Source: Dehalococcoidales bacterium (lineage in GTDB: Bacteria > Chloroflexota > Dehalococcoidia > Dehalococcoidales > Fen-1064). From it: a stretch of 64,000 bases of DNA. Under the pieces are notes generated by a model. That model was not told the DNA's origin. It searched no databases and was given only the letters and a program-made list of their open reading frames with translations. Shown here one piece after another: positions 3,491 through 37,764 of the stretch. A program made the position numbers and the translations under genes. The first letter of the stretch is position 1, and each line of letters starts with the position of its first letter. Location of the stretch: the NCBI GenBank assembly GCA_035529395.1, contig DATKWT010000091.1, positions 135-64,134 on the forward strand, written 5' to 3'.

Positions 3491-3982
3491 ATGGTAAGAA
3501 TGGGCAGGCCACCGCTCTGGCGTCGAGTTAACAACATACCTGATGTGCCCTACTTCAAACCGGCCGGGGTACCGCTGACCGCACTGGAAGAGGTACAGTT
3601 GTCGGTTGAGGAAGTAGAAGCAATTCGCCTGAAGGACCTTGAGCGTTTAGCACAAGAGGGTTGCGCTCAAAGGATGAGTGTCTCGCGTACCACCTTTGCT
3701 CGTATCCTGACTTCAGCCCGGCAGAAGATGGCTGATGCTTTACTCCATGGTAAGGCGATTAGAATTGATGGCGGTAATTTTCAATTGGCCCTGCAGCATT
3801 TCAGGTGCAATCGTGGCCATGAGTGGGATGTTCCGTTTGAAGTTATGGTAAATACGCCCCCACGGTTCTGCCCTGCCTGCAACACACAAAATATCCTGAG
3901 CACTCAGCTTCCGGGCCCGGGAAGAGGCAGGTCTGGCCGAGGAAGACGCCATAGAGGCGGGCGCAACTGGCAGGAGGTGTAG
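3491..3982 (+). CDS. DUF134-family putative DNA-binding protein with a C-terminal zinc ribbon and Arg/Gly-rich tail
   Basis: The N-terminal part matches the DUF134/UPF0251 pattern (GRPP..R....P....FKP.G....L..V.L..EE.EA.RL.D...L.Q...A..M.VSR.TF.R.L..AR.K.A.AL..G). Downstream lie C..GH..//..CPAC and the tail PGPGRGRSGRGRRHRGGR. Confidence 0.75.
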   Translation: MVRMGRPPLWRRVNNIPDVPYFKPAGVPLTALEEVQLSVEEVEAIRLKDLERLAQEGCAQRMSVSRTTFARILTSARQKMADALLHGKAIRIDGGNFQLALQHFRCNRGHEWDVPFEVMVNTPPRFCPACNTQNILSTQLPGPGRGRSGRGRRHRGGRNWQEV

Positions 3983-8626: not shown

Positions 8627-8965
8627 ATGAGGTACGCAGTACCGGTAAACAATGGTATATTATCACCACACTTCGGTCACTGTGAGCATTTTGCCATGCT
8701 CGATGTTGACGTCGAAAAAAAGGAGATACTCAAGAATGAGCTTGTGCCGTCACCGGGCCATCAGCCGGGTCTTCTTCCGCAGTGGCTGGCCGACCAGGGG
8801 GTCTCGGTAGTAATTGCTGGTGGTATGGGTTCGCGCGCCCAGGACCTTTTCCAGCAGAACCGCATCCAGGTCGTTATCGGTGCCCAGGAAGGTGACCCGG
8901 AGAAGGCGGTGCTGAGCTATCTGCATGAAGAATTGGCTACCGAAGATAACATATGTGACCACTAA
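8627..8965 (+). CDS. NifX/NifB-like (FeMo-cofactor-biosynthesis domain) protein, copy 2
   Basis: Start at the ATG 5 nt after GGAGGT (the track starts at a TTG at 8615). Motifs are PHFGHCEHF, VIAGGMG and IQVV.G. Confidence 0.8.
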   Translation: MRYAVPVNNGILSPHFGHCEHFAMLDVDVEKKEILKNELVPSPGHQPGLLPQWLADQGVSVVIAGGMGSRAQDLFQQNRIQVVIGAQEGDPEKAVLSYLHEELATEDNICDH

Positions 8966-18622: not shown

Positions 18623-18699
18623 TGGGGTGAGTGAGGGGATTCGAACCCCCGATCTCCAGGGCCACAACCTGGCGCCTTAACCGCTAGGCGACACCCACC
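18623..18699 (-). tRNA. tRNA-His (anticodon GTG)
   Basis: Manual cloverleaf. It has an extra G-1 paired with discriminator C73, an acceptor stem GTGGGTG/CACTCAC, a D stem GCCT/AGGC and an anticodon stem CCAGG/CCTGG with loop TTGTGGC. The T arm is GGGGG-TTCGAAT-CCCCT and CCA is encoded. Confidence 0.9.
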
Positions 18700-18776: not shown

Positions 18777-18805
18777 TTGATTTAGCCAGTACCGATTGGT
18801 ATACT
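18777..18805 (+). promoter_or_regulatory. Promoter candidate TTGATT-17 nt-TATACT for the CoA-transferase genes
   Basis: Hexamers and spacing read directly from the sequence. Confidence 0.5.
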
Positions 18806-18891
18806 CGTGGGTAACCCCACCCCAGGGAAGACCGTCCCCATGTGCGGGACGGTTTCTGACATATTCCCACGGAACGGAGAAGGGAGAGACT

Positions 18892-20088
18892 GTGGAGCAG
18901 GCTCTGTCCGGCGTCAGGGTACTGGATGTAACTCACTACATTGCCGGGCCCTACTGCACCAAGCTGCTCGCCGACTATGGCGCCGAGGTGGTCAAGGTGG
19001 AAAGGCACGGTACCGGTGACGGCGCCAGAAGGATTGGCCCCTTCTACAAGGATGACCCTCATCCGGAAAAGAGTGGCCTGTTTCTCTACCTGAACACCAA
19101 CAAACGCGGTGTCACTCTGAACCTGAAGTCTGAGACCGGGATTAGAATATTCCGGGAACTGGTGGTAGACGCTGACATCCTCGTGGAGAACTTCAGCCCC
19201 AGGGTGATGGCGTCTCTGGGTCTGGACTATGAGAGTCTGGAGAGGATAAACCCCGGTCTGGTTATGACCTCCATTTCCAACTTCGGGCAGACCGGTCCCT
19301 ACCGAGACTACAAGGCCACCGAGATTGTCGCTGATGCTATGGGTGGCTGGATGAGCATCATCGGCCACCCGGACCGCGAGCCACTTAAACCCGGCGGGAA
19401 CCAGGCGCAGTTTGTCAGCGGTCTCTTCGGATGTGTCGGTACAATGACCGCTTTCCACGGTCGGGAGTTGACCGGAGTCGGACAACACGTGGACATATCC
19501 CTGATGGATGCCGTGCTCTACATCCAGATGAATATTACGCAAATATATCACTACCACGAGAGGGTTACCAGCAGAATCGGCAATATGGTACTGCCCCCAC
19601 CCGGTTCGATACTACCCTGTCGGGACGGCTATATCGGGGCTATCGCCGTTACGAACAGCCAGTGGCAATCCCTCTGTGAGTGGATGGGGAAACCGGAGCT
19701 AGCCAGCGACGAGAGGTTCCTTACCAGAATCCACCGCACCGAGAATGTGGACGAGCTTATTGCTACGTTAATTCCCTGGCTACTCGAGCATGACCAGGAG
19801 GAACTGCTGCGCGAAGCGCAGAAGCGAAGGATTCCTTTTGGAATCCCGGCTGGGGCCGACCGGTTACTCAACTCTGAGCATCTCAACGAGAGAGGCTATT
19901 TCGTAGATGTTGAGCATCCCGTTACCGGAAAGGTCAGGTATCCCGGTGCCCAGTTTGGATTGGGTGATTTGCCCTATGAATTAAAGCCGGCGCCGCTGCT
20001 GGGTGAGCATAACGAGGAAATCTACTGCCATCGTCTCGGTTATAATAAAAAAGACCTGGTGAGGCTGCGAGAGACGGGCGTTATTTGA
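18892..20088 (+). CDS. Family III (CaiB/BaiF) CoA-transferase, paralogue 1
   Basis: LSGVRVLDVTHYIAGPYCTKLLADYGAEVVKVE is the typical N-terminus. Start taken at the GTG after GGAGAAGGGAGAG. The track's TTG at 18796 would sit inside the promoter. Confidence 0.85.
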   Translation: MEQALSGVRVLDVTHYIAGPYCTKLLADYGAEVVKVERHGTGDGARRIGPFYKDDPHPEKSGLFLYLNTNKRGVTLNLKSETGIRIFRELVVDADILVENFSPRVMASLGLDYESLERINPGLVMTSISNFGQTGPYRDYKATEIVADAMGGWMSIIGHPDREPLKPGGNQAQFVSGLFGCVGTMTAFHGRELTGVGQHVDISLMDAVLYIQMNITQIYHYHERVTSRIGNMVLPPPGSILPCRDGYIGAIAVTNSQWQSLCEWMGKPELASDERFLTRIHRTENVDELIATLIPWLLEHDQEELLREAQKRRIPFGIPAGADRLLNSEHLNERGYFVDVEHPVTGKVRYPGAQFGLGDLPYELKPAPLLGEHNEEIYCHRLGYNKKDLVRLRETGVI

Positions 20089-20120
20089 GCAATTCCACGC
20101 CTCGCGGAGGGATAGAGAAA

Positions 20121-21407
20121 ATGCCTGGACTGCCGCTGGAAGGACTGCGGGTACTTGACCTCTCCATGTGGTTTGCCGGACCCATGGGCAGCCGGTTGCT
20201 GGCCGACATGGGGGCTGAGGTAATCAAGATAGAATCGCTGGGACACATCGACCCGTGGCGAGGGCCTGCCAGGGTTACACCAATACTTATTGAGCGGATG
20301 CCGGAGTTGGCATCCGTTGAAAAGCCGTACAATCGTTCGGCCGGCTTCAACCTGCAGAACCGGAACAAGTATGGAATCACACTCGACCTTCGTACCGGGC
20401 GGGGCAAAGAGGTGTTCATGAAGCTGGTTGAAGTCAGTGACGTTGTCCTGGAGAACTATAGCCCCAGGGTCATGGATAGCCTGGATATTGATTACCCGGT
20501 ACTCACTGAAATCAACCCCCGGCTCATTATGATGTCATTGCCGGCCCTGGGCAGGACCGGCCCGGACAGGGACCATATTGCCTTCGGGCAGACGATAGAC
20601 TGCATGAGCGGTATGGCGTATCTCACCGGTTATCCTGGTGAAGAGCCGATGTTGCAGAGCGGGCTGTCCTACGGCGACCCACTGTCCGGGATGAACGCCG
20701 CTTTTGCTGTACTGTCAGCCCTGCACTACCGCCGGCGTACGGGCCGGGGAATGCATATTGACCTCTCACAGGTAGAAGGTCTTATCTCGTTCAACGCGGA
20801 TTCCGTGATGGACTACACGATGAACGGACGGGTACGTGAGCGAATGGGAAACCGCCATCCCTCGATGGCGCCCCACGGCTGCTATCGCTGCCGGGGTGAA
20901 GATAACTGGGTGGTGATTGCCGTCTCTTCAGACGCAGTCTGGGAGCGGTTCTGTCAGGCGCTGGAGCAGCCGCCCTGGACAGAGGATACCCGGTTCTCAA
21001 ACCTGCCGGGCAGGTACCGCCACCAGGATGAGCTGGACAGGCTGATAGAGGTCTGGACTGTGCAGCATGACCACTACGATGTAATGCGCATCCTGCAGCG
21101 GGCAGACGTCCCCGCTGGGCCGGTGCTCAACGCCAGGGAACTGACCGAGGAGCCGCATCTAAACGAACGGGGCATCTTTGAAACAGTCACCCACCCCGAA
21201 GCGGGCACGCATCCCTATATCGGCATGTACGCCCGGTTCTCAAAGACACCGGGGAGTATAAGGATGCCCGCTCCGTGCCTCGGTGAGCACAACCGCTATG
21301 TTTTCGGGGAAATACTCGGCATGTCTGAGGAGGGGATTTCGGAGCTGGAAGAGCTCGGTATAATCGGCACCGAAGCCCTGCCGGAGCAACAGGGGGGCAT
21401 GTTTTAG
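20121..21407 (+). CDS. Family III (CaiB/BaiF) CoA-transferase, paralogue 2
   Basis: LEGLRVLDLSMWFAGPMGSRLLADMGAEVIKIE. ATG lies 8 nt after GGAGGG. Confidence 0.85.
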   Translation: MPGLPLEGLRVLDLSMWFAGPMGSRLLADMGAEVIKIESLGHIDPWRGPARVTPILIERMPELASVEKPYNRSAGFNLQNRNKYGITLDLRTGRGKEVFMKLVEVSDVVLENYSPRVMDSLDIDYPVLTEINPRLIMMSLPALGRTGPDRDHIAFGQTIDCMSGMAYLTGYPGEEPMLQSGLSYGDPLSGMNAAFAVLSALHYRRRTGRGMHIDLSQVEGLISFNADSVMDYTMNGRVRERMGNRHPSMAPHGCYRCRGEDNWVVIAVSSDAVWERFCQALEQPPWTEDTRFSNLPGRYRHQDELDRLIEVWTVQHDHYDVMRILQRADVPAGPVLNARELTEEPHLNERGIFETVTHPEAGTHPYIGMYARFSKTPGSIRMPAPCLGEHNRYVFGEILGMSEEGISELEELGIIGTEALPEQQGGMF

Positions 21408-21609
21408 TACCTGGTTGCAGAAATACCTAGTATGTTCCGCGGGGTGAGACCCTTCGGCTTCGGCCTGCTGGCAAAGCCAGCAGGTAAGTTCAGGGTGACA
21501 CGCCGTTGGCATGTCATTCTTGAGCAACACGCCGTTGGCTTCAGTGGCACGCCACTCGCCTCAGTGGCGCAGAATCTGAATGTTGCGCGGATTTGTGCAA
21601 CCAGGTACT
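21406..21609. mobile_element. MITE-like non-coding repeat, copy A (204 bp)
   Basis: 19-bp terminal inverted repeats AGTACCTGGTTGCAGAAAT / ATTTGTGCAACCAGGTACT with 1 mismatch. Both ends are homologous to copy B at 26925-27055. It carries extra internal segments, including the hairpin at 21464-21484. The left TIR supplies the AG of the upstream TAG stop. Confidence 0.7.
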
Positions 21610-21691
21610 GGAGATGGTATATAATTCACGTGGGTGCGGAACCATAGTGTAGAATAACCAATGCATTAAAAAGAAGATTGGAGAAATCCAG

Positions 21692-23002
21692 ATGAAGGCT
21701 GTACTGGAAGGTATCAAGGTTCTGGACGTTTCCCAGGTGGCCGCTGTGCCCATGTGTGCCCGGCATCTGGGTGACTTCGGTGCGGATGTGATTCACGTGG
21801 AGCACGCCACCAGGGGCGATTCATGGAGGGTGCTTCAGGCGGGATATGGTGGCGGTGCCGGTGTGCCCTCTGAAATCAACTACAACTGGGAAGCCTTCAA
21901 CCGTAACAAGCGCAGTCTGGCGGTGGACATTTCCCATGAGTCGGGCAGGGACATAATATACAAGCTGGTCAAGGAGACGGACGTTTTCGTAACCAACCTG
22001 CGTCTCCCAGAGAAGGAGAAACACGGGGTGAGCTATGATGCCCTGCGCCGTATCAACCCGAAGCTTATCTACGCTTGCCTGACCGGGCATGGCAAAAAAG
22101 GGCCCAACCGTGAGACCCCGGCCTATGATACCACCGTCTACTGGGGGAGGTCGGGGGTCACCAGCACTCTGACCGTCCCCGGACTCTCGGGACCGGCCCC
22201 ACGCCCGGCGTTTGGTGATGTTGTTGCCGGTCTCGGGCTTGCCTTTGGCATTGTGATGGCCCTCTACCACCGTGACAAGACCGGGATAGGCCAGGAGATT
22301 GACACCTCCTTATTGCATACCGGCATCTACCAGTTGACCTTCGACGTTTCGGCTGCTCTGGCTACCGGGCAGGATATCGTGGAGTACAGGCTCAATCCCC
22401 CCGAGGTGCTGGATGAAGAGTTGATGAAGCGCCGGAACGAGCTCATTGGTGAGGCCCAGGAAGCAATAGTACGTCTCGGCGAGTTCTACCGGGAGAACTC
22501 ACCCAATCCCCTGGCGAATCGTTACACCACGAAAGACGGCAAGGTAATCGGTTTCAATGCGCTGCAGTCGGACCGGTTCTGGGCGGAGTTCTGCCGCGTA
22601 ATCGAGCGTCCTGACCTTGAGGAAGACCCGAGGTTTATATCAAGTGAGGCCAGGACCGAGAACAAAGGTGAGCTATACTCTATCCTGCGGGACGCCTTTA
22701 TCACCAGGACTCTCGATGAATGGACACCTCACCTAGTCGGGTTGCCGTACGCTCCCATACAAAACACCGTGGATGTTGTCAATGATGTCCAGGCAGAGGC
22801 AAACAACATGTTCCTGCCCGTTGACCACCCTACATACGGACCGATGAAGGTAATCGCCAATCCCGTAAATCTCAGTGAGACCCCGGCCACATACCGACTC
22901 CCGTCTCCGGAGTTCAGCCAGCATACAGAGGAGATTCTCCTGGAACTGGGCTATAGCTGGGAGGATATCGCGCGACTCAAAGAAGAAGGGACCATAGCCT
23001 GA
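21692..23002 (+). CDS. Family III (CaiB/BaiF) CoA-transferase, paralogue 3
   Basis: LEGIKVLDVSQVAAVPMCARHLGDFGADVIHVE. GGAGAA RBS. Confidence 0.85.
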   Translation: MKAVLEGIKVLDVSQVAAVPMCARHLGDFGADVIHVEHATRGDSWRVLQAGYGGGAGVPSEINYNWEAFNRNKRSLAVDISHESGRDIIYKLVKETDVFVTNLRLPEKEKHGVSYDALRRINPKLIYACLTGHGKKGPNRETPAYDTTVYWGRSGVTSTLTVPGLSGPAPRPAFGDVVAGLGLAFGIVMALYHRDKTGIGQEIDTSLLHTGIYQLTFDVSAALATGQDIVEYRLNPPEVLDEELMKRRNELIGEAQEAIVRLGEFYRENSPNPLANRYTTKDGKVIGFNALQSDRFWAEFCRVIERPDLEEDPRFISSEARTENKGELYSILRDAFITRTLDEWTPHLVGLPYAPIQNTVDVVNDVQAEANNMFLPVDHPTYGPMKVIANPVNLSETPATYRLPSPEFSQHTEEILLELGYSWEDIARLKEEGTIA

Positions 23003-25693: not shown

Positions 25694-26926
25694 ATGAAGA
25701 GACTGACCCTTGACCAGTGGGAGAAGAAGTATATTGCCGGTACGGTCGAGAGGTTTGACCAGAAGTATCAGATGTTCAACAGGCCGGCCTGGGACCCGGA
25801 GATGAAAGAGTTGCTGGAGGACTGGTCATTCGGTGGCGAAGCCAGGGAGAGACCGGGCTATACTTTGCTTGACCACGCACTGAAACGGGCGAGCTCACGC
25901 ATCACACAGCTAGCGGTGTTCAATATGTACAAGCCCAACCCCAGCCCGGTGACAATGGCAATAACGGCGGCGATGGCAGGTGCATACTCGCGTCGTCAAC
26001 CCATGCCGGAGAAACCTCGTGAGAGGATGAAGATTGATGTCAGTGACTCGGAGGTACTGACGCGTAATGTGAAGAAAGTGGCCCGGTACTTTGGAGCCGA
26101 CCTGGTGGGTGTCTGCCGGCTGGACCGGCGGTTCGTGTATTCACACACCTACGGAGGGAACACATTTGAGGGTGCGCGTGAGTCTGAAGTGGACGCAGAC
26201 GGATCCCGGCCGCAGGAAATACCCGGTGAGTTTCAGTACGCCATAGTCATGGGATTCGAGATGGATTACGACCTCATGAAGTACTTCCCGACCTATGTTG
26301 CCGAAACCACTACGGCAATGGGTTACAGCAGGATGGCCATTGCCAATGCCCACCTGTCCGCCTTCATTCGGGGGCTGGGGTTCAAGACCATTGACTGTAG
26401 CATCAATGATGTTGCCCTTTCGGTACCACTGGCAATGCAGGCAGGGCTGGGTGACATCGGACGGAACGGGATACTGATTACACCACAGTTCGGGCCTCGC
26501 CTGAGGTTGAGCAAGGTGTTTACTGACCTGCCGCTGATTGTCGATACGCCGGTTGATTTCGGGGTCACCGAATTCTGTAAAGCCTGTATGAAGTGTGCCG
26601 AGATGTGTCCATCACAGGCCATTTCCACCGGGGAGAGGACCTCCGAGCCAAACAACGTGTCCAACGTGACTGGTGAAATGAAGTGGTCGATTGACCCTGT
26701 CAAATGCCGTATGCACTGGGGGCGTACGGATAAGTCATGCACCATCTGCGTTGCCTGCTGCCCCTACAATAAGCCGGATACCCTGTTCCACCGGGCGGTC
26801 CTGCGTCTTACCGACTACCTGAGGTGGACGGATTCTCTCTGTGTCCGGATGGACAAATTGCTCGGTTACGGCAGACCGGCCCGGGTAGCGGACTTCTGGG
26901 AGGAGTGGCAGCCCCGGCGGCACTAG
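25694..26926 (+). CDS. Reductive dehalogenase homologue (RdhA-like) without a TAT signal
   Basis: The C-terminal motifs are DLPL..D.PVDFG..EFCKACMKCAEMCPSQAI and W..DP.KC..(9)..CTICVACCPYNKP, the two RdhA Fe-S motifs. The N-terminus MKRLTLDQWEKKY has no RRxFxK. No rdhB-like ORF is adjacent. Confidence 0.85.
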   Translation: MKRLTLDQWEKKYIAGTVERFDQKYQMFNRPAWDPEMKELLEDWSFGGEARERPGYTLLDHALKRASSRITQLAVFNMYKPNPSPVTMAITAAMAGAYSRRQPMPEKPRERMKIDVSDSEVLTRNVKKVARYFGADLVGVCRLDRRFVYSHTYGGNTFEGARESEVDADGSRPQEIPGEFQYAIVMGFEMDYDLMKYFPTYVAETTTAMGYSRMAIANAHLSAFIRGLGFKTIDCSINDVALSVPLAMQAGLGDIGRNGILITPQFGPRLRLSKVFTDLPLIVDTPVDFGVTEFCKACMKCAEMCPSQAISTGERTSEPNNVSNVTGEMKWSIDPVKCRMHWGRTDKSCTICVACCPYNKPDTLFHRAVLRLTDYLRWTDSLCVRMDKLLGYGRPARVADFWEEWQPRRH

Positions 26927-27055
26927 TACTCAGTTGCAGAAACACCATGTAGTATGTTCCGTGGGGTGAGACCCTTCTCTACACTCAGGGTGACGTGCCA
27001 CTAGCCTCAGTGACGCAGAATCTGAATGTTGTGCGGATTTGTGCAACTAGATACC
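26925..27055. mobile_element. MITE-like non-coding repeat, copy B (131 bp)
   Basis: Its left ~60 nt and right ~70 nt are homologous to copy A. It begins in the TAG stop of the RdhA homologue and ends 10 nt from the fabD stop on the opposite strand. Its TIRs are more degenerate (13/18). Confidence 0.7.
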
Positions 27056-27065
27056 AGGGAAGGCG

Positions 27066-28001
27066 TCAGGACTGCTCTGCGAGGGCCTGGACGGCTTCGG
27101 CGTCCCCGATATTCAGCGTCTCCACGCTTCGGTCTATGCGCCTCATCAGGCCGGTAAGAACCCTGCCGGGCCCGATTTCGATGACGCTGGTGACACCGTT
27201 CTCAATCATGTACTCGATGGAACCCTGCCACTGAACGCTGTTGCATAGCTGTTCCAGGAGTTCTGACTTGACTGCCTCCGCAGTGGTCATCGGTCGGGCG
27301 GAAGTATTGGCGATTATGGGTACAGCGGGCTCACGGAAGGTCAGGGTGGGAATAATCTCGGCCATTCCGTCTACGGCGGGCTGCATCAGCGGGGTATGGA
27401 AAGCACCACTCACCTGAAGGGGGATAGCGCGGGATGCACCCTTCTCTTTGGCCAGCTCTACCGCTCTGTCAATATTGTCAGTGGCCCCGCTGATTACCAG
27501 TTGTCCGGGGCAGTTGATATTGGCTAACCGGGTGTCTGTTTCCTGGCAGATGCCGGTCAGTACCGGCTCGTCCAGTCCGATGATTGCTGCCATCGTGCCG
27601 GGTCGTTCCAACCCGGCCTGGTACATCAAACGGCCCCTCTCGCGGGCGAGGTAAACGGTATCGGCGAAGTCAAGCACGGCTGCCGCAGCCAGCGCGGTGT
27701 ACTCCCCGAGGCTATGGCCGGCCACGAAGGTTGGTGGCGGCAGACCCTTGCCTGTTTCCTGGGCCGCCTTCAGGCAGGCAAAGCTCACCGTGACCAGCGC
27801 CGGTTGCGCGTTGACTGTCTTGCGGAGCTCGTCCTCCGGTCCTTCGAAGCAAAGCCCGGAGAGAGAGAACCCCAGCCTTTCGTCGGCCTGTTCAAAAACC
27901 GTTCTCGCTACGGGGTAGCTCTCGTAAAGGTCACGTCCCATGCCGACGGACTGGGAACCTTGCCCCGGAAAGACATAAGCCACTCTCTTTGTATCGACCA
28001 T
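27066..28001 (-). CDS. fabD: Malonyl-CoA:ACP transacylase
   Basis: FPGQGSQ and the GHSLGEY active-site motif. Confidence 0.9.
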   Translation of the reverse strand: MVDTKRVAYVFPGQGSQSVGMGRDLYESYPVARTVFEQADERLGFSLSGLCFEGPEDELRKTVNAQPALVTVSFACLKAAQETGKGLPPPTFVAGHSLGEYTALAAAAVLDFADTVYLARERGRLMYQAGLERPGTMAAIIGLDEPVLTGICQETDTRLANINCPGQLVISGATDNIDRAVELAKEKGASRAIPLQVSGAFHTPLMQPAVDGMAEIIPTLTFREPAVPIIANTSARPMTTAEAVKSELLEQLCNSVQWQGSIEYMIENGVTSVIEIGPGRVLTGLMRRIDRSVETLNIGDAEAVQALAEQS

Positions 28002-36185: not shown

Positions 36186-36398
36186 TTACATCGTTACTAT
36201 CCGGATAGCCTGCATGGGACAGGCACGGACGCAATCGCCACACGCCTGACAGAGGGATGGATTGGTCATCGGTATCTCTCCAAAATGCTCCTGTTTGATT
36301 AGCTTACGGGGGCACGCTTCGGCGGCGAGGCAGATTCCATCCTCGCAGTACTCCGGGTGGCACTTCGGGAAGTCCACCAGGGCCATCTTTTCAGGCAC
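36186..36398 (-). CDS. Small ferredoxin-like protein
   Basis: One canonical CQACGDCVRACP motif plus a non-canonical C-x4-C-x4-C-x5-CP. Start is the GTG at 36398 or the ATG at 36386. Confidence 0.65.
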   Translation of the reverse strand: MPEKMALVDFPKCHPEYCEDGICLAAEACPRKLIKQEHFGEIPMTNPSLCQACGDCVRACPMQAIRIVTM

Positions 36399-36546
36399 TC
36401 GCGGCCTTCTCCTGCTTCGCTTTCTCCAGGGCTTCTTCCAGTTCCTCCAGTTGTTGCAGCATAGAGGGTTTCACCGAGTGTGCCGGCCACCTCGCCTTGA
36501 GGTCGGCTATCTCCTCTTCAAGCTGCTTAATCCTGTCCTGGACCAC
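36391..36546 (-). CDS. Small coiled-coil protein (51 aa) with an RWPAHS motif
   Basis: Below the ORF-track cutoff. GTG lies 3 nt after the Fur stop. Sequence is VVQDRIKQLEEEIADLKARWPAHSVKPSMLQQLEELEEALEKAKQEKAASA. Its stop overlaps the ferredoxin start (GTGCCTGA). I recall similar small proteins elsewhere but cannot verify this. Confidence 0.45.
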   Translation of the reverse strand: MVQDRIKQLEEEIADLKARWPAHSVKPSMLQQLEELEEALEKAKQEKAASA

Positions 36547-36549
36547 AGT

Positions 36550-36984
36550 TCAGATATCCTCTCTCTTATCCTTAAAACATTGCCGGCACTGCCCTTCGAG
36601 ATAGAACTCGGTCCTGGTAACGTTGAATCCCTGCTCCTGCTGTATGCTCCTGACCAGCTTACCGATAAGGGGGGTCCGGAACTCTATCACTCTGCCACAT
36701 TCATGGCAAACGAAATGCTGGTGTTCGGCATGACTGCGTATCTCATAGTGGTGGCTCGACCAGCCCAGTCTTTGTTCATCAACCAGGCCCAACTCCTGGA
36801 ACAGGCGCAGGCTCCGGTACACCGTGGCCAGGCTGATAGACGTATCGGCGCTGCTGGCACGACGGTACAGTTCCTTGGCGTCAATATGCCCGCTGGCGTT
36901 GCGTATCAACTCCAGGAGCAGTCGTCTCTGCGCGGTGAGAGGGTATCCTGCTATTGCCTTGTCCAGATTGCGAATGTTTCTCAT
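36550..36984 (-). CDS. Fur-family metalloregulator (paralogue 3)
   Basis: SLATVYRSLRLFQELGLV, HQHFVCHECG and a C-terminal CRQC. ATG at 36984 (the track begins at a TTG two codons upstream). Confidence 0.85.
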   Translation of the reverse strand: MRNIRNLDKAIAGYPLTAQRRLLLELIRNASGHIDAKELYRRASSADTSISLATVYRSLRLFQELGLVDEQRLGWSSHHYEIRSHAEHQHFVCHECGRVIEFRTPLIGKLVRSIQQEQGFNVTRTEFYLEGQCRQCFKDKREDI

Positions 36985-36995
36985 TCTCAACTGAT

Positions 36996-37024
36996 ATTGT
37001 ACTGCGACTCGGCTAGCGTGTCAA
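36996..37024 (-). promoter_or_regulatory. Promoter TTGACA-17 nt-TACAAT for Fur paralogue 3, with only 11 nt between the -10 and the ATG
   Basis: Read on the minus strand as TTGACAcgctagccgagtcgcagTACAATatcagttgagaATG. Confidence 0.6.
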
Positions 37025-37047
37025 TAGACCTCCGGTATGGCCCAGTA

Positions 37048-37764
37048 TCAGTCCTGCCCTGGGTGTTTGCCGGCCACGATGACGACGAACCCGGCTCCGA
37101 TGCGGAAACCAGTCTGTGGCGATTCCGCACGGGTTACTTCGTCCGGCCCTTCAAAGAGGGTTGAGACAGTATTCTGCACGGAGAAGTCACCCCGCTCGAT
37201 GAGGTTTATCAACTCATCATAGCTCCGAAAAATAGCATGGGTATAAAGTGGGTGCCCCTGGTGCTTCATCTCTTTGTATAATTGTGTCCAGGCACTGTGA
37301 GCGGGCATTACGGCCAGTACCAGTTTTCCACCGGGTACGAGAACGCGGTGCACCTCGCGCAGGACGGACAAGGGTTGTTCTATAAAGCACATGGTGGTTA
37401 TCAGGAACACCGCACCGAAACACCGGTCACCAAACGGCAGTTGCTCTCCGCGGGCCAGGAGCACGGCTGTGTCCCGTTGGGATGCGACTTCAATCATTTT
37501 AACTGCAATGTCGACCCCGGTTCCTATCCCCAGTGCTTGAGCGAATCTGCCCGTCCCCACACCTACTTCGAGCCACGGCCCGGAAAGTGAGGGCAGTACC
37601 TGCTGTAAAGACCGTAATTCAGTTTCAAAAACGAGCCTGCCTGCTTCATCGTACCATGCGTCATAGTCCGCAACGGACTCATTGAAGGGGGATGCCGGTA
37701 TACCGGGAACCCCGGTTCCCTTACCGTGTTCTGTCGGTCGGGGTGGCTCTTCAGTGTAAGGCAT
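37048..37764 (-). CDS. Class I SAM-dependent methyltransferase
   Basis: Motif I is LEVGVGTGRF, with a post-I region and PGGKLVL. Start trimmed to MPYTEE. The track's 330-aa version overlaps holA out of frame for ~290 nt. Confidence 0.75.
   Translation of the reverse strand: MPYTEEPPRPTEHGKGTGVPGIPASPFNESVADYDAWYDEAGRLVFETELRSLQQVLPSLSGPWLEVGVGTGRFAQALGIGTGVDIAVKMIEVASQRDTAVLLARGEQLPFGDRCFGAVFLITTMCFIEQPLSVLREVHRVLVPGGKLVLAVMPAHSAWTQLYKEMKHQGHPLYTHAIFRSYDELINLIERGDFSVQNTVSTLFEGPDEVTRAESPQTGFRIGAGFVVIVAGKHPGQD

Follow-up and report, generated by a model that had tools for sequence, protein, structure and literature searches.

The window analyzed here is a 64,000-nt stretch of a Dehalococcoidales contig (DATKWT010000091.1, assembly GCA_035529395.1), and it carries two intergenic copies of a short repeat bounded by terminal inverted repeats (TIRs). 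Copy A (positions 21407–21608, + strand, 202 bp; nhmmer profile E = 5e-44) is a long form, and copy B (26926–27054, + strand, 129 bp; nhmmer profile E = 3e-37) is shortened by an internal deletion, with the ATGTCATTCTT arm missing and the TIRs partly decayed. Copy A sits between two co-directional genes for family III CoA-transferases, at 20121–21407 (+ strand; start placed by comparison with 428-aa orthologues) and 21692–23002 (+ strand; Pfam), and the stop codon of the first gene carries the element. Copy B lies between convergent genes; it is carried by the stop codon of a 4Fe-4S protein gene (25694–26926, + strand), whose product resembles a reductive dehalogenase or an epoxyqueuosine reductase (QueG-like), and is followed by a gene for a FabD-like acyltransferase (27066–28001, − strand). 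According to our analysis, the repeat is very likely a MITE (miniature inverted-repeat transposable element), that is, a gene-less, non-autonomous derivative of a DNA transposon, 130–200 bp long, which is moved in trans and has spread in an uncultured lineage of Dehalococcoidales.

Pairwise alignment of the two copies revealed a common left end of about 55–60 nt and a common right end of about 70 nt, and copy A exceeds copy B by 73 bp, which correspond to two internal blocks. In the predicted fold, the left TIR of copy A (GTACCTGGTTGCAGAAATA, 21407–21425, + strand) pairs with the right TIR at 21590–21608 (ATTTGTGCAACCAGGTAC, + strand, read from the sequence), and the two arms, AGTACCTGGTTGCAGAAAT / ATTTGTGCAACCAGGTACT, are complementary at 18 of 19 positions; the TIRs of copy B are more decayed (13/19). 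In copy A, the first internal hairpin bears at its apex an optional module (21456–21487, + strand; columns 56–82 of the multi-copy alignment) that includes the hairpin CTGCTGGC-AAA-GCCAGCAG at 21465–21483. The apex of the second internal hairpin is formed by two tandem 20-nt hairpin units CACGCCRNTSGCYTCAGTGG (21528–21567, + strand, as defined by the alignment), and the sequence ACACGCCGTTGGC is duplicated at 21498–21510 and 21527–21539. The initial annotation had reported two intergenic elements with common ends, a length difference of about 73 bp, the hairpin, the duplication and a single mismatch in the TIRs of copy A. All of this was confirmed, with coordinates that differ from the boundaries used here by 1–2 nt.

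The coding capacity of the element is limited to short, frame-dependent open reading frames (ORFs). The peptide PLASV(A/T)QNLNV(A/V)RICATRY is common to the ORFs 21432–21647 and 26995–27234 because both overlap the repeat, and these ORFs are alike only through it, as had been proposed. A search with the concatenated six-frame peptides, meant to count copies and to reveal a parent transposase with the TIR at its end, detected no protein relatives at E <= 1e-3, at which matches of 10–20 residues could not reach significance.

In order to define the family, an exact 24-nt right-end pattern was scanned over genome and metagenome contig collections, and it was found in two other genomes, both of them Dehalococcoidales metagenome-assembled genomes (MAGs), and in 12 metagenome contigs, of which one is the sequence of the window. 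Nine of the 14 loci recovered (L numbers below denote fetched loci) contain independent full copies; L004 duplicates copy A, L006, L013, and L014 have one truncated copy in common, and L008 is a right end cut at the contig start. With copies A and B included, 11 independent full copies were available. They adjoin unrelated genes, encoding CoaE, a ComF-like protein, SDRs, CoA-transferases, a DUF169 protein, a carboxyltransferase, a methyltransferase, and an archaellin-like protein. The initial annotation had named the lack of any further copies as an outcome that would speak against mobility; the copies are in fact present in unrelated loci and in other genomes. Chance similarity or an assembly artefact has a negligible probability as an explanation: nothing speaks for it except that all of the data are metagenome assemblies, and the same element was found in independent assemblies from different projects and assemblers, with shuffle expectations near 0. 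A 25-nt core with one N has 2 matches in the window against 0.00 expected in shuffles, and a 17-mer of the repeat has 2 against 0.16.

The consensus of the 11 full copies ends in C-TA-GTACTCAGTTGCAGAAAT ... ATTTGTGCAACTAGGTAC-TA-G, with TIRs of about 20 bp (e.g., GTACTCAGTTGCAGAAATACC) that agree at 15 of 18 positions counted from GTAC and at 18 of 21 when the flanking CTA/TAG are counted. The interior consists of a TCCGC/GCGGA helix that closes two hairpins, the tips of which are variable. At its tip, the first hairpin carries GCTACRC or a 30-nt module containing CTGCTGGC-AAA-GCCAGCAG; this module occurs in copy A, L005, and L011 and is missing from the other copies. The second hairpin carries at its tip GAGCGAAGCGAAG, AGCCGGGRCTCCGAGCGGAGCGAGGAGACAC, or the 20-nt unit CACGCCRNTSGCYTCAGTGG once or twice, with one unit in copy B and two in copy A, L001, and L016. 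In L010, the second tip holds a complete copy of another inverted-repeat family, and the element, otherwise 129–202 bp in size, reaches 301 bp where this second repeat is nested.

The flanks of the copies point to duplication of the target, which had been suggested as a feature to look for. The left flanking dinucleotide is TA in 9 of the 11 independent copies. The same dinucleotide stands on both sides in seven of them (six with TA and one, L005, with TC), and in the remaining four the two flanks differ by one transition. The outer bases around the flanking TA are C and G, i.e., the target is CTAG. L005 has the non-consensus TC on both sides, which is the pattern predicted by target duplication. 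Copy A is preceded by TA (21405–21406, + strand), the first two bases of the TAG stop 21405–21407 of the CoA-transferase gene, and followed by TG (21609–21610, + strand; flank table and the empty sites in L021 and L022), which is probably the second copy of TA with one transition. Copy B is preceded by TA (26924–26925, + strand; flank table and the empty site in L017), which belongs to the TAG stop 26924–26926 of the 4Fe-4S protein gene, and followed by CA (27055–27056, + strand), which is also found in L016 and can likewise be interpreted as a second TA that underwent one transition.

It is just as conceivable that the whole 4-bp CTAG was duplicated, in the manner of IS5-type elements, and at CTAG targets the 2-bp and 4-bp models are indistinguishable, because both give identical sequence. 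Under such a model, the MITE would be derived from, and moved by, a transposase of the IS5 type (IS5 or IS427 group, or similar) that duplicates 4-bp CTAG/YTAR, and its true ends would be TAC...GTA. YTAR is the target consensus of IS5, and termini with GG/GA are typical of IS5 groups. Most copies have CTAG at both ends, and L009, with CTAA on both sides, is a better fit to a 4-bp duplication, which explains it without a mutated TIR. However, in L002 (flanks CTAG/CTAC) and L005 (ATCG/CTCG), the two sides agree perfectly only if a 2-bp duplication is assumed (TA/TA and TC/TC, respectively), and the termini of the element are unlike the GG/GA termini of the IS5 groups, so that we consider an IS5-type origin unlikely. 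The transposase that moves the element is probably of the IS630/Tc1-mariner type, since TA duplicated within CTAG is the documented target of IS630. The title of Tenzen and Ohtsubo (1991), as cited in PMC2170065, gives insertion of IS630 at TA within 5'-CTAG-3' with duplication of the central TA, and the dinucleotide duplicated by ISY100 is TA, or on occasion a different one (PMC2170065).

The initial annotation had left open whether the repeat is a transposable element or a structured repeat similar to the repetitive extragenic palindromes (REPs). The first part of this proposal stood: copies elsewhere, TIRs, a duplicated dinucleotide and empty sites indicate a non-autonomous mobile family. 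The second part did not, as the defining features of REPs, which are 20–40 bp palindromes with an unpaired GTAG or CGTC tag (PMC3733652), were not found. Spread of a REP/REPIN-like palindrome through a RAYT tyrosine transposase that makes no true target duplication would agree with the highly structured and extragenic nature of the element and with its mosaic of small hairpin modules. In addition, the palindrome (C/T)GTCATTCT...AGAATGAC also stands alone in related contigs, which recalls the CGTC-tagged REPs (PMC3733652). We nevertheless regard this explanation as very unlikely, given the length of 130–200 bp, the 20-bp TIRs starting with GTAC, the lack of a GTAG tag, the matching flanking dinucleotides (the non-canonical TC/TC pair included), and the lack of any IS200/RAYT-like gene among the proteins checked. 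Within the MITE, the palindrome (C/T)GTCATTCT-loop-AGAATGAC(G) forms the second hairpin (window 21512–21585). It occurs alone at about 7768–7797 of L001 and at 8644–8665 of L011, and in L011 it is CGTC-tagged, like the CGTC superfamily of REPs (PMC3733652).

Six of the 11 insertions (A, B, L003, L007, L009, and L011) are located exactly in the stop codon of Pfam-validated genes; for copies A and B, a start within the upstream TAG stop had been recognized from the outset. In three of these insertions the left end of the element adjoins the gene, and in the other three the right end does, so that neither orientation is preferred. Because the two SDR neighbours share only 44% identity, the insertions beside them are independent. 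The tetranucleotide CTAG is strongly depleted in the window (50 sites, where base composition predicts 245 and a Markov estimate 100), and eight of the 22 CTAG sites located outside gene interiors and element copies are stop codons. A special enrichment at stop codons was considered and rejected: with 8/22 of the non-genic CTAG sites being stops, 6/11 insertions at stops need no extra mechanism. Since CTAG is rare and many non-genic CTAG sites are TAG stops, insertions that survive selection against gene disruption would often be found in a stop codon. TAG is the commonest stop among the 62 predicted genes of the window (TAG 25, TGA 20, TAA 17), which enlarges the pool of harmless CTAG/TAG targets. 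Among other palindromic tetranucleotides, GATC is nearly absent from the window (22 sites vs. 245 expected from base composition), and GTAC, CATG, TCGA, and AGCT occur at expectation; the depletion of GATC suggests that strong restriction-type avoidance may operate in the source organism.

Comparison with orthologous loci provided filled and empty sites. Site A lacks the element in L021 (an orthologue at 95% aa identity) and in L022 (87%, GCA_030597755.1), both of which have the same three CoA-transferase genes and retain the 80-nt leader of the downstream CoA-transferase gene. Site B is empty in L017 (79% protein identity; the convergent fabD is also there), in which a 37-nt spacer reads GGCAC-TA-GG, and filled in L016 (98% orthologue), in which the element has one extra 20-nt unit relative to the window. 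No element was detected by nhmmer in L017, L021, and L022. The initial annotation had supposed that the insertions redefined the C-termini of the upstream genes, and this was refuted: the element-free orthologues end identically, in ...QQGGMF at site A (L021 and L022) and ...WQPRRH at site B (L017), in each case with a TAG stop. Site A without the element and one flank would read TTTTAG-AGATGG, matching the relatives after their lineage-specific segments have been removed. Immediately after the stop, L021 has a 49-nt segment of this kind (3788–3836) flanked by GGGATG repeats, and L022 has a different one of about 27 nt (3788–3816) flanked by GGAG/GAG; the position equivalent to window 21408 is an indel hot spot, or else these segments are footprints of other events. 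If the sister-sample contigs L016 and L021 represent one population, copy B may be older than copy A.

The position of many copies directly 3' of a coding region raises the question whether the element is not selfish DNA but a selected structured RNA, for example a 3'-untranslated region stabilizer, a processing site, a small RNA or an attenuator. As RNA, copy A has a very stable predicted fold (−102 kcal/mol; z = −6.5 vs. shuffles), and the related question of mRNA processing arises from the Correia and ERIC elements, which influence it (PMC10969869). However, copy B has an unexceptional fold (z = −1.8), the sites are empty in relatives at 79–95% protein identity, and copies are found in either orientation with respect to the neighbouring gene. 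RNAalifold and pair counting describe a foldable palindrome, in which 94.1% of cells are paired vs. 93.2% in shuffles, and compensatory double changes affect 4 pairs vs. 1.8 in shuffles, so that covariation is barely above the controls. Copy B and the element in L016 differ by 10 substitutions in 129 nt and a 20-nt indel, and the third codon positions of two flanking genes differ between the window and L016 by 19 in 723 (Fisher p = 0.007 vs. the element). The element evolves faster than the third codon positions of the flanking genes and shows no sign of sequence constraint; the three changes in the left TIR between copy B and L016 are uncompensated. Rfam searches returned nothing relevant (gathering threshold for the window; E-value thresholds for copy A, L007, and L012). 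Taken together, we find a selected RNA function highly improbable. Conservation at syntenic positions, which had been named as the sign of a functional RNA motif, was not observed, as the sites are empty in close relatives. The suggested role as a terminator or mRNA stabilizer is also unsupported: no hairpin with a U-tract was found in 21300–21750 and 26850–27150, the element is found in both orientations, and its evolution is fast. A promoter-like (sigma-70-like) site was found neither in nor beside copies A and B, and an element-borne −35 box with TATAAT at 21622–21627 was rejected, as the spacing is wrong and the promoter scan of this site is empty.

Inverted ends, the flanking duplication, dispersal, both orientations, nesting, truncation, and presence/absence at orthologous sites are the evidence for a MITE. 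Such elements are recognized by their TIRs and direct repeats, the lack of a transposase, a stable fold, and sites that are empty or filled (PMC3184786), and every generic feature in that account was found here, the parent insertion sequence excepted. According to the scenario that we propose, a DDE transposase encoded elsewhere would bind the inverted repeats, excise the element, and paste it into TA. Upon insertion into a TAG stop, the target TA and the first G of the element would rebuild the stop codon, leaving the protein unchanged. The element is most likely selfish and nearly neutral, and any consequence for transcripts (for instance, read-through RNA with a long hairpin) would be incidental.

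To the ambiguity of the duplicated site should be added several other points that weigh against this reading. The autonomous partner transposase that the initial annotation had suggested looking for was not found, and neither the window nor the 28 fetched loci nor the viral contigs (two scans) yielded an autonomous element with the same TIRs; Pfam likewise revealed no transposase among 18 proteins of the window, scans of the viral contigs with the right-end and left-end patterns gave 0 matches, and a consensus-like copy had no blastn match among the PLSDB plasmids. Neither empty site forms a clean before/after pair, as the adjoining spacers have also diverged. Every source is a fragmented metagenome assembly, and the counts are not copies per genome. 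Finally, the conservation of the right end in the copy set is inflated because the loci were fetched by an exact right-end pattern.

We can also conceive, as a doubtful extension, that the element is more than a passive MITE. Its G-after-TA ends and CTAG targeting could be an adaptation for harmless colonization of TAG stops. It could also be one component, besides the second inverted-repeat family and the freestanding (C/T)GTCATTCT palindromes, of a modular, BIME-like system of Dehalococcoidales in which the families exchange hairpin cassettes, with some copies exapted as 3'-end RNA structures.

The window also contains a solo left-end fragment of the MITE family (ATACTCAATTGCAGAAATACCAGCTAGTGT, 30 nt, 137–166, − strand; nhmmer E = 9e-4). 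The remainder of this element is missing, as L026, a contig that reaches past the window start, has no right half of it. Beside the fragment, at 1–103 (strand not assigned), lies part of the second, unrelated inverted-repeat family, about 170–240 bp in size, with the ends TAGCAGGCTGMTGAAAAAC ... GTTTTTCATCAGCYTGCTA and the core hairpins CCCCCTTCCTGGCCAGGAAGGGGG and TCTGGGGGACACCCCCAGA. Other copies of it are located in L010 (415–580, nested in the MITE), L001 (7630–7747), L011 (8509–8743), L013 (4729–4885), L014 (5807–5985), L017 (1–63 and 230–267), and L007 (23–62). Among the fetched contigs, this family is more widespread than the MITE and is often found at contig ends, and, judging by these positions, it appears to break assemblies. 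Contig breaks inside repeats, a further trait of mobile DNA, were observed in L008, L017, L026, and L027. Two candidates related to the MITE were rejected. A profile search did not support the CTAG-rich gap 2210–2520 as a decayed copy, and two ORFs (162 and 197 aa) upstream of the L014 half-copy, considered as a frameshifted IS630 transposase, were assigned by Pfam to a response regulator and an archaellin-like protein; the L014 half-copy is therefore simply 5'-truncated.

The surroundings are those of an ordinary chromosome, with ftsZ, mraW, the CODH/ACS delta subunit gene, holA, and fab genes. A tRNA gene (18626–18698, − strand; Rfam RF00005, 63 bits) is located just upstream of three tandem family III CoA-transferase genes (18796–23002). 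The 300-aa ORF 36262–37164 (+ strand) has no Pfam match at E <= 1e-5 and may be an orphan gene or a spurious ORF. Beyond the window start, positions 1–420 of L026 include AT-rich sequence in which the hairpin ACAAACATCGGGATGTTTGT occurs twice, as well as the 3' end of a gene, a candidate HNH-nuclease-like one according to its by-eye translation (...DHITPWSKGG...NC..LC..CN..K). This region may be an island or a defence locus beside the repeats.

Our analysis delimits a MITE family for uncultured Dehalococcoidales; the kind of element is ordinary, and the current understanding of transposition is unchanged. No described MITE from Dehalococcoidia or Chloroflexi was found in the literature searched, and a 2024 review of prokaryotic MITEs does not mention Chloroflexi (PMC10969869). 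The contigs of these Dehalococcoidales often end in the MITE or in its companion repeat family, which helps to explain the fragmentation of their MAGs, and the repeats yield spurious short ORFs with common peptides. Presence or absence of the element at sites A and B separates relatives that are 95–98% identical in the flanking proteins and is usable as a strain marker. The insertions into stop codons illustrate how an element targeting TA/CTAG can occupy gene ends without changing the protein.

Among the known systems, REP/BIME and REPIN sequences are extragenic, hairpin-built, and mosaic, like the element described here, which differs from them in having no GTAG/CGTC tag, a much greater length, true TIRs, and matching flanking dinucleotides. 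ERIC/IRU sequences of Enterobacteriaceae are imperfect palindromes of about 127 bp that, like our element, are often found at the 3' ends of genes within transcripts and have size variants due to internal insertions; however, ERIC copies are often kept at orthologous sites across species, whereas the sites studied here are empty in relatives at 79–95% identity. The Correia elements (NEMIS) of Neisseria resemble our element in their size of 100–200 bp, TIRs, subfamilies that differ by an internal block, and gene-adjoining position. They also duplicate TA. In Correia elements, promoters and an IHF site are present and RNase III cleaves the TIR stems (PMC10969869), whereas no promoter-like site was found here.

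RUP (Streptococcus pneumoniae) and Nezha (Anabaena/Nostoc), bacterial MITEs derived from IS630/Tc1-mariner elements, resemble our element in their size of 100–200 bp, TIRs, lack of a transposase gene, very stable predicted hairpin, duplication of TA, and subfamilies with internal blocks, and Stowaway of plants is their eukaryotic counterpart. No sequence similarity of our element to RUP, Nezha, Stowaway, or the Correia elements was established. The mobility of Nezha was likewise argued from empty and filled orthologous sites (PMC3184786), and the TA duplication and CTAG preference of IS630 and ISY100 match those of the element (PMC2170065). Compared with RUP and Nezha, the interior of the Dehalococcoidales element is no simple deletion remnant, as it is built of two hairpins with swappable apical modules and a 20-nt unit that varies in number.

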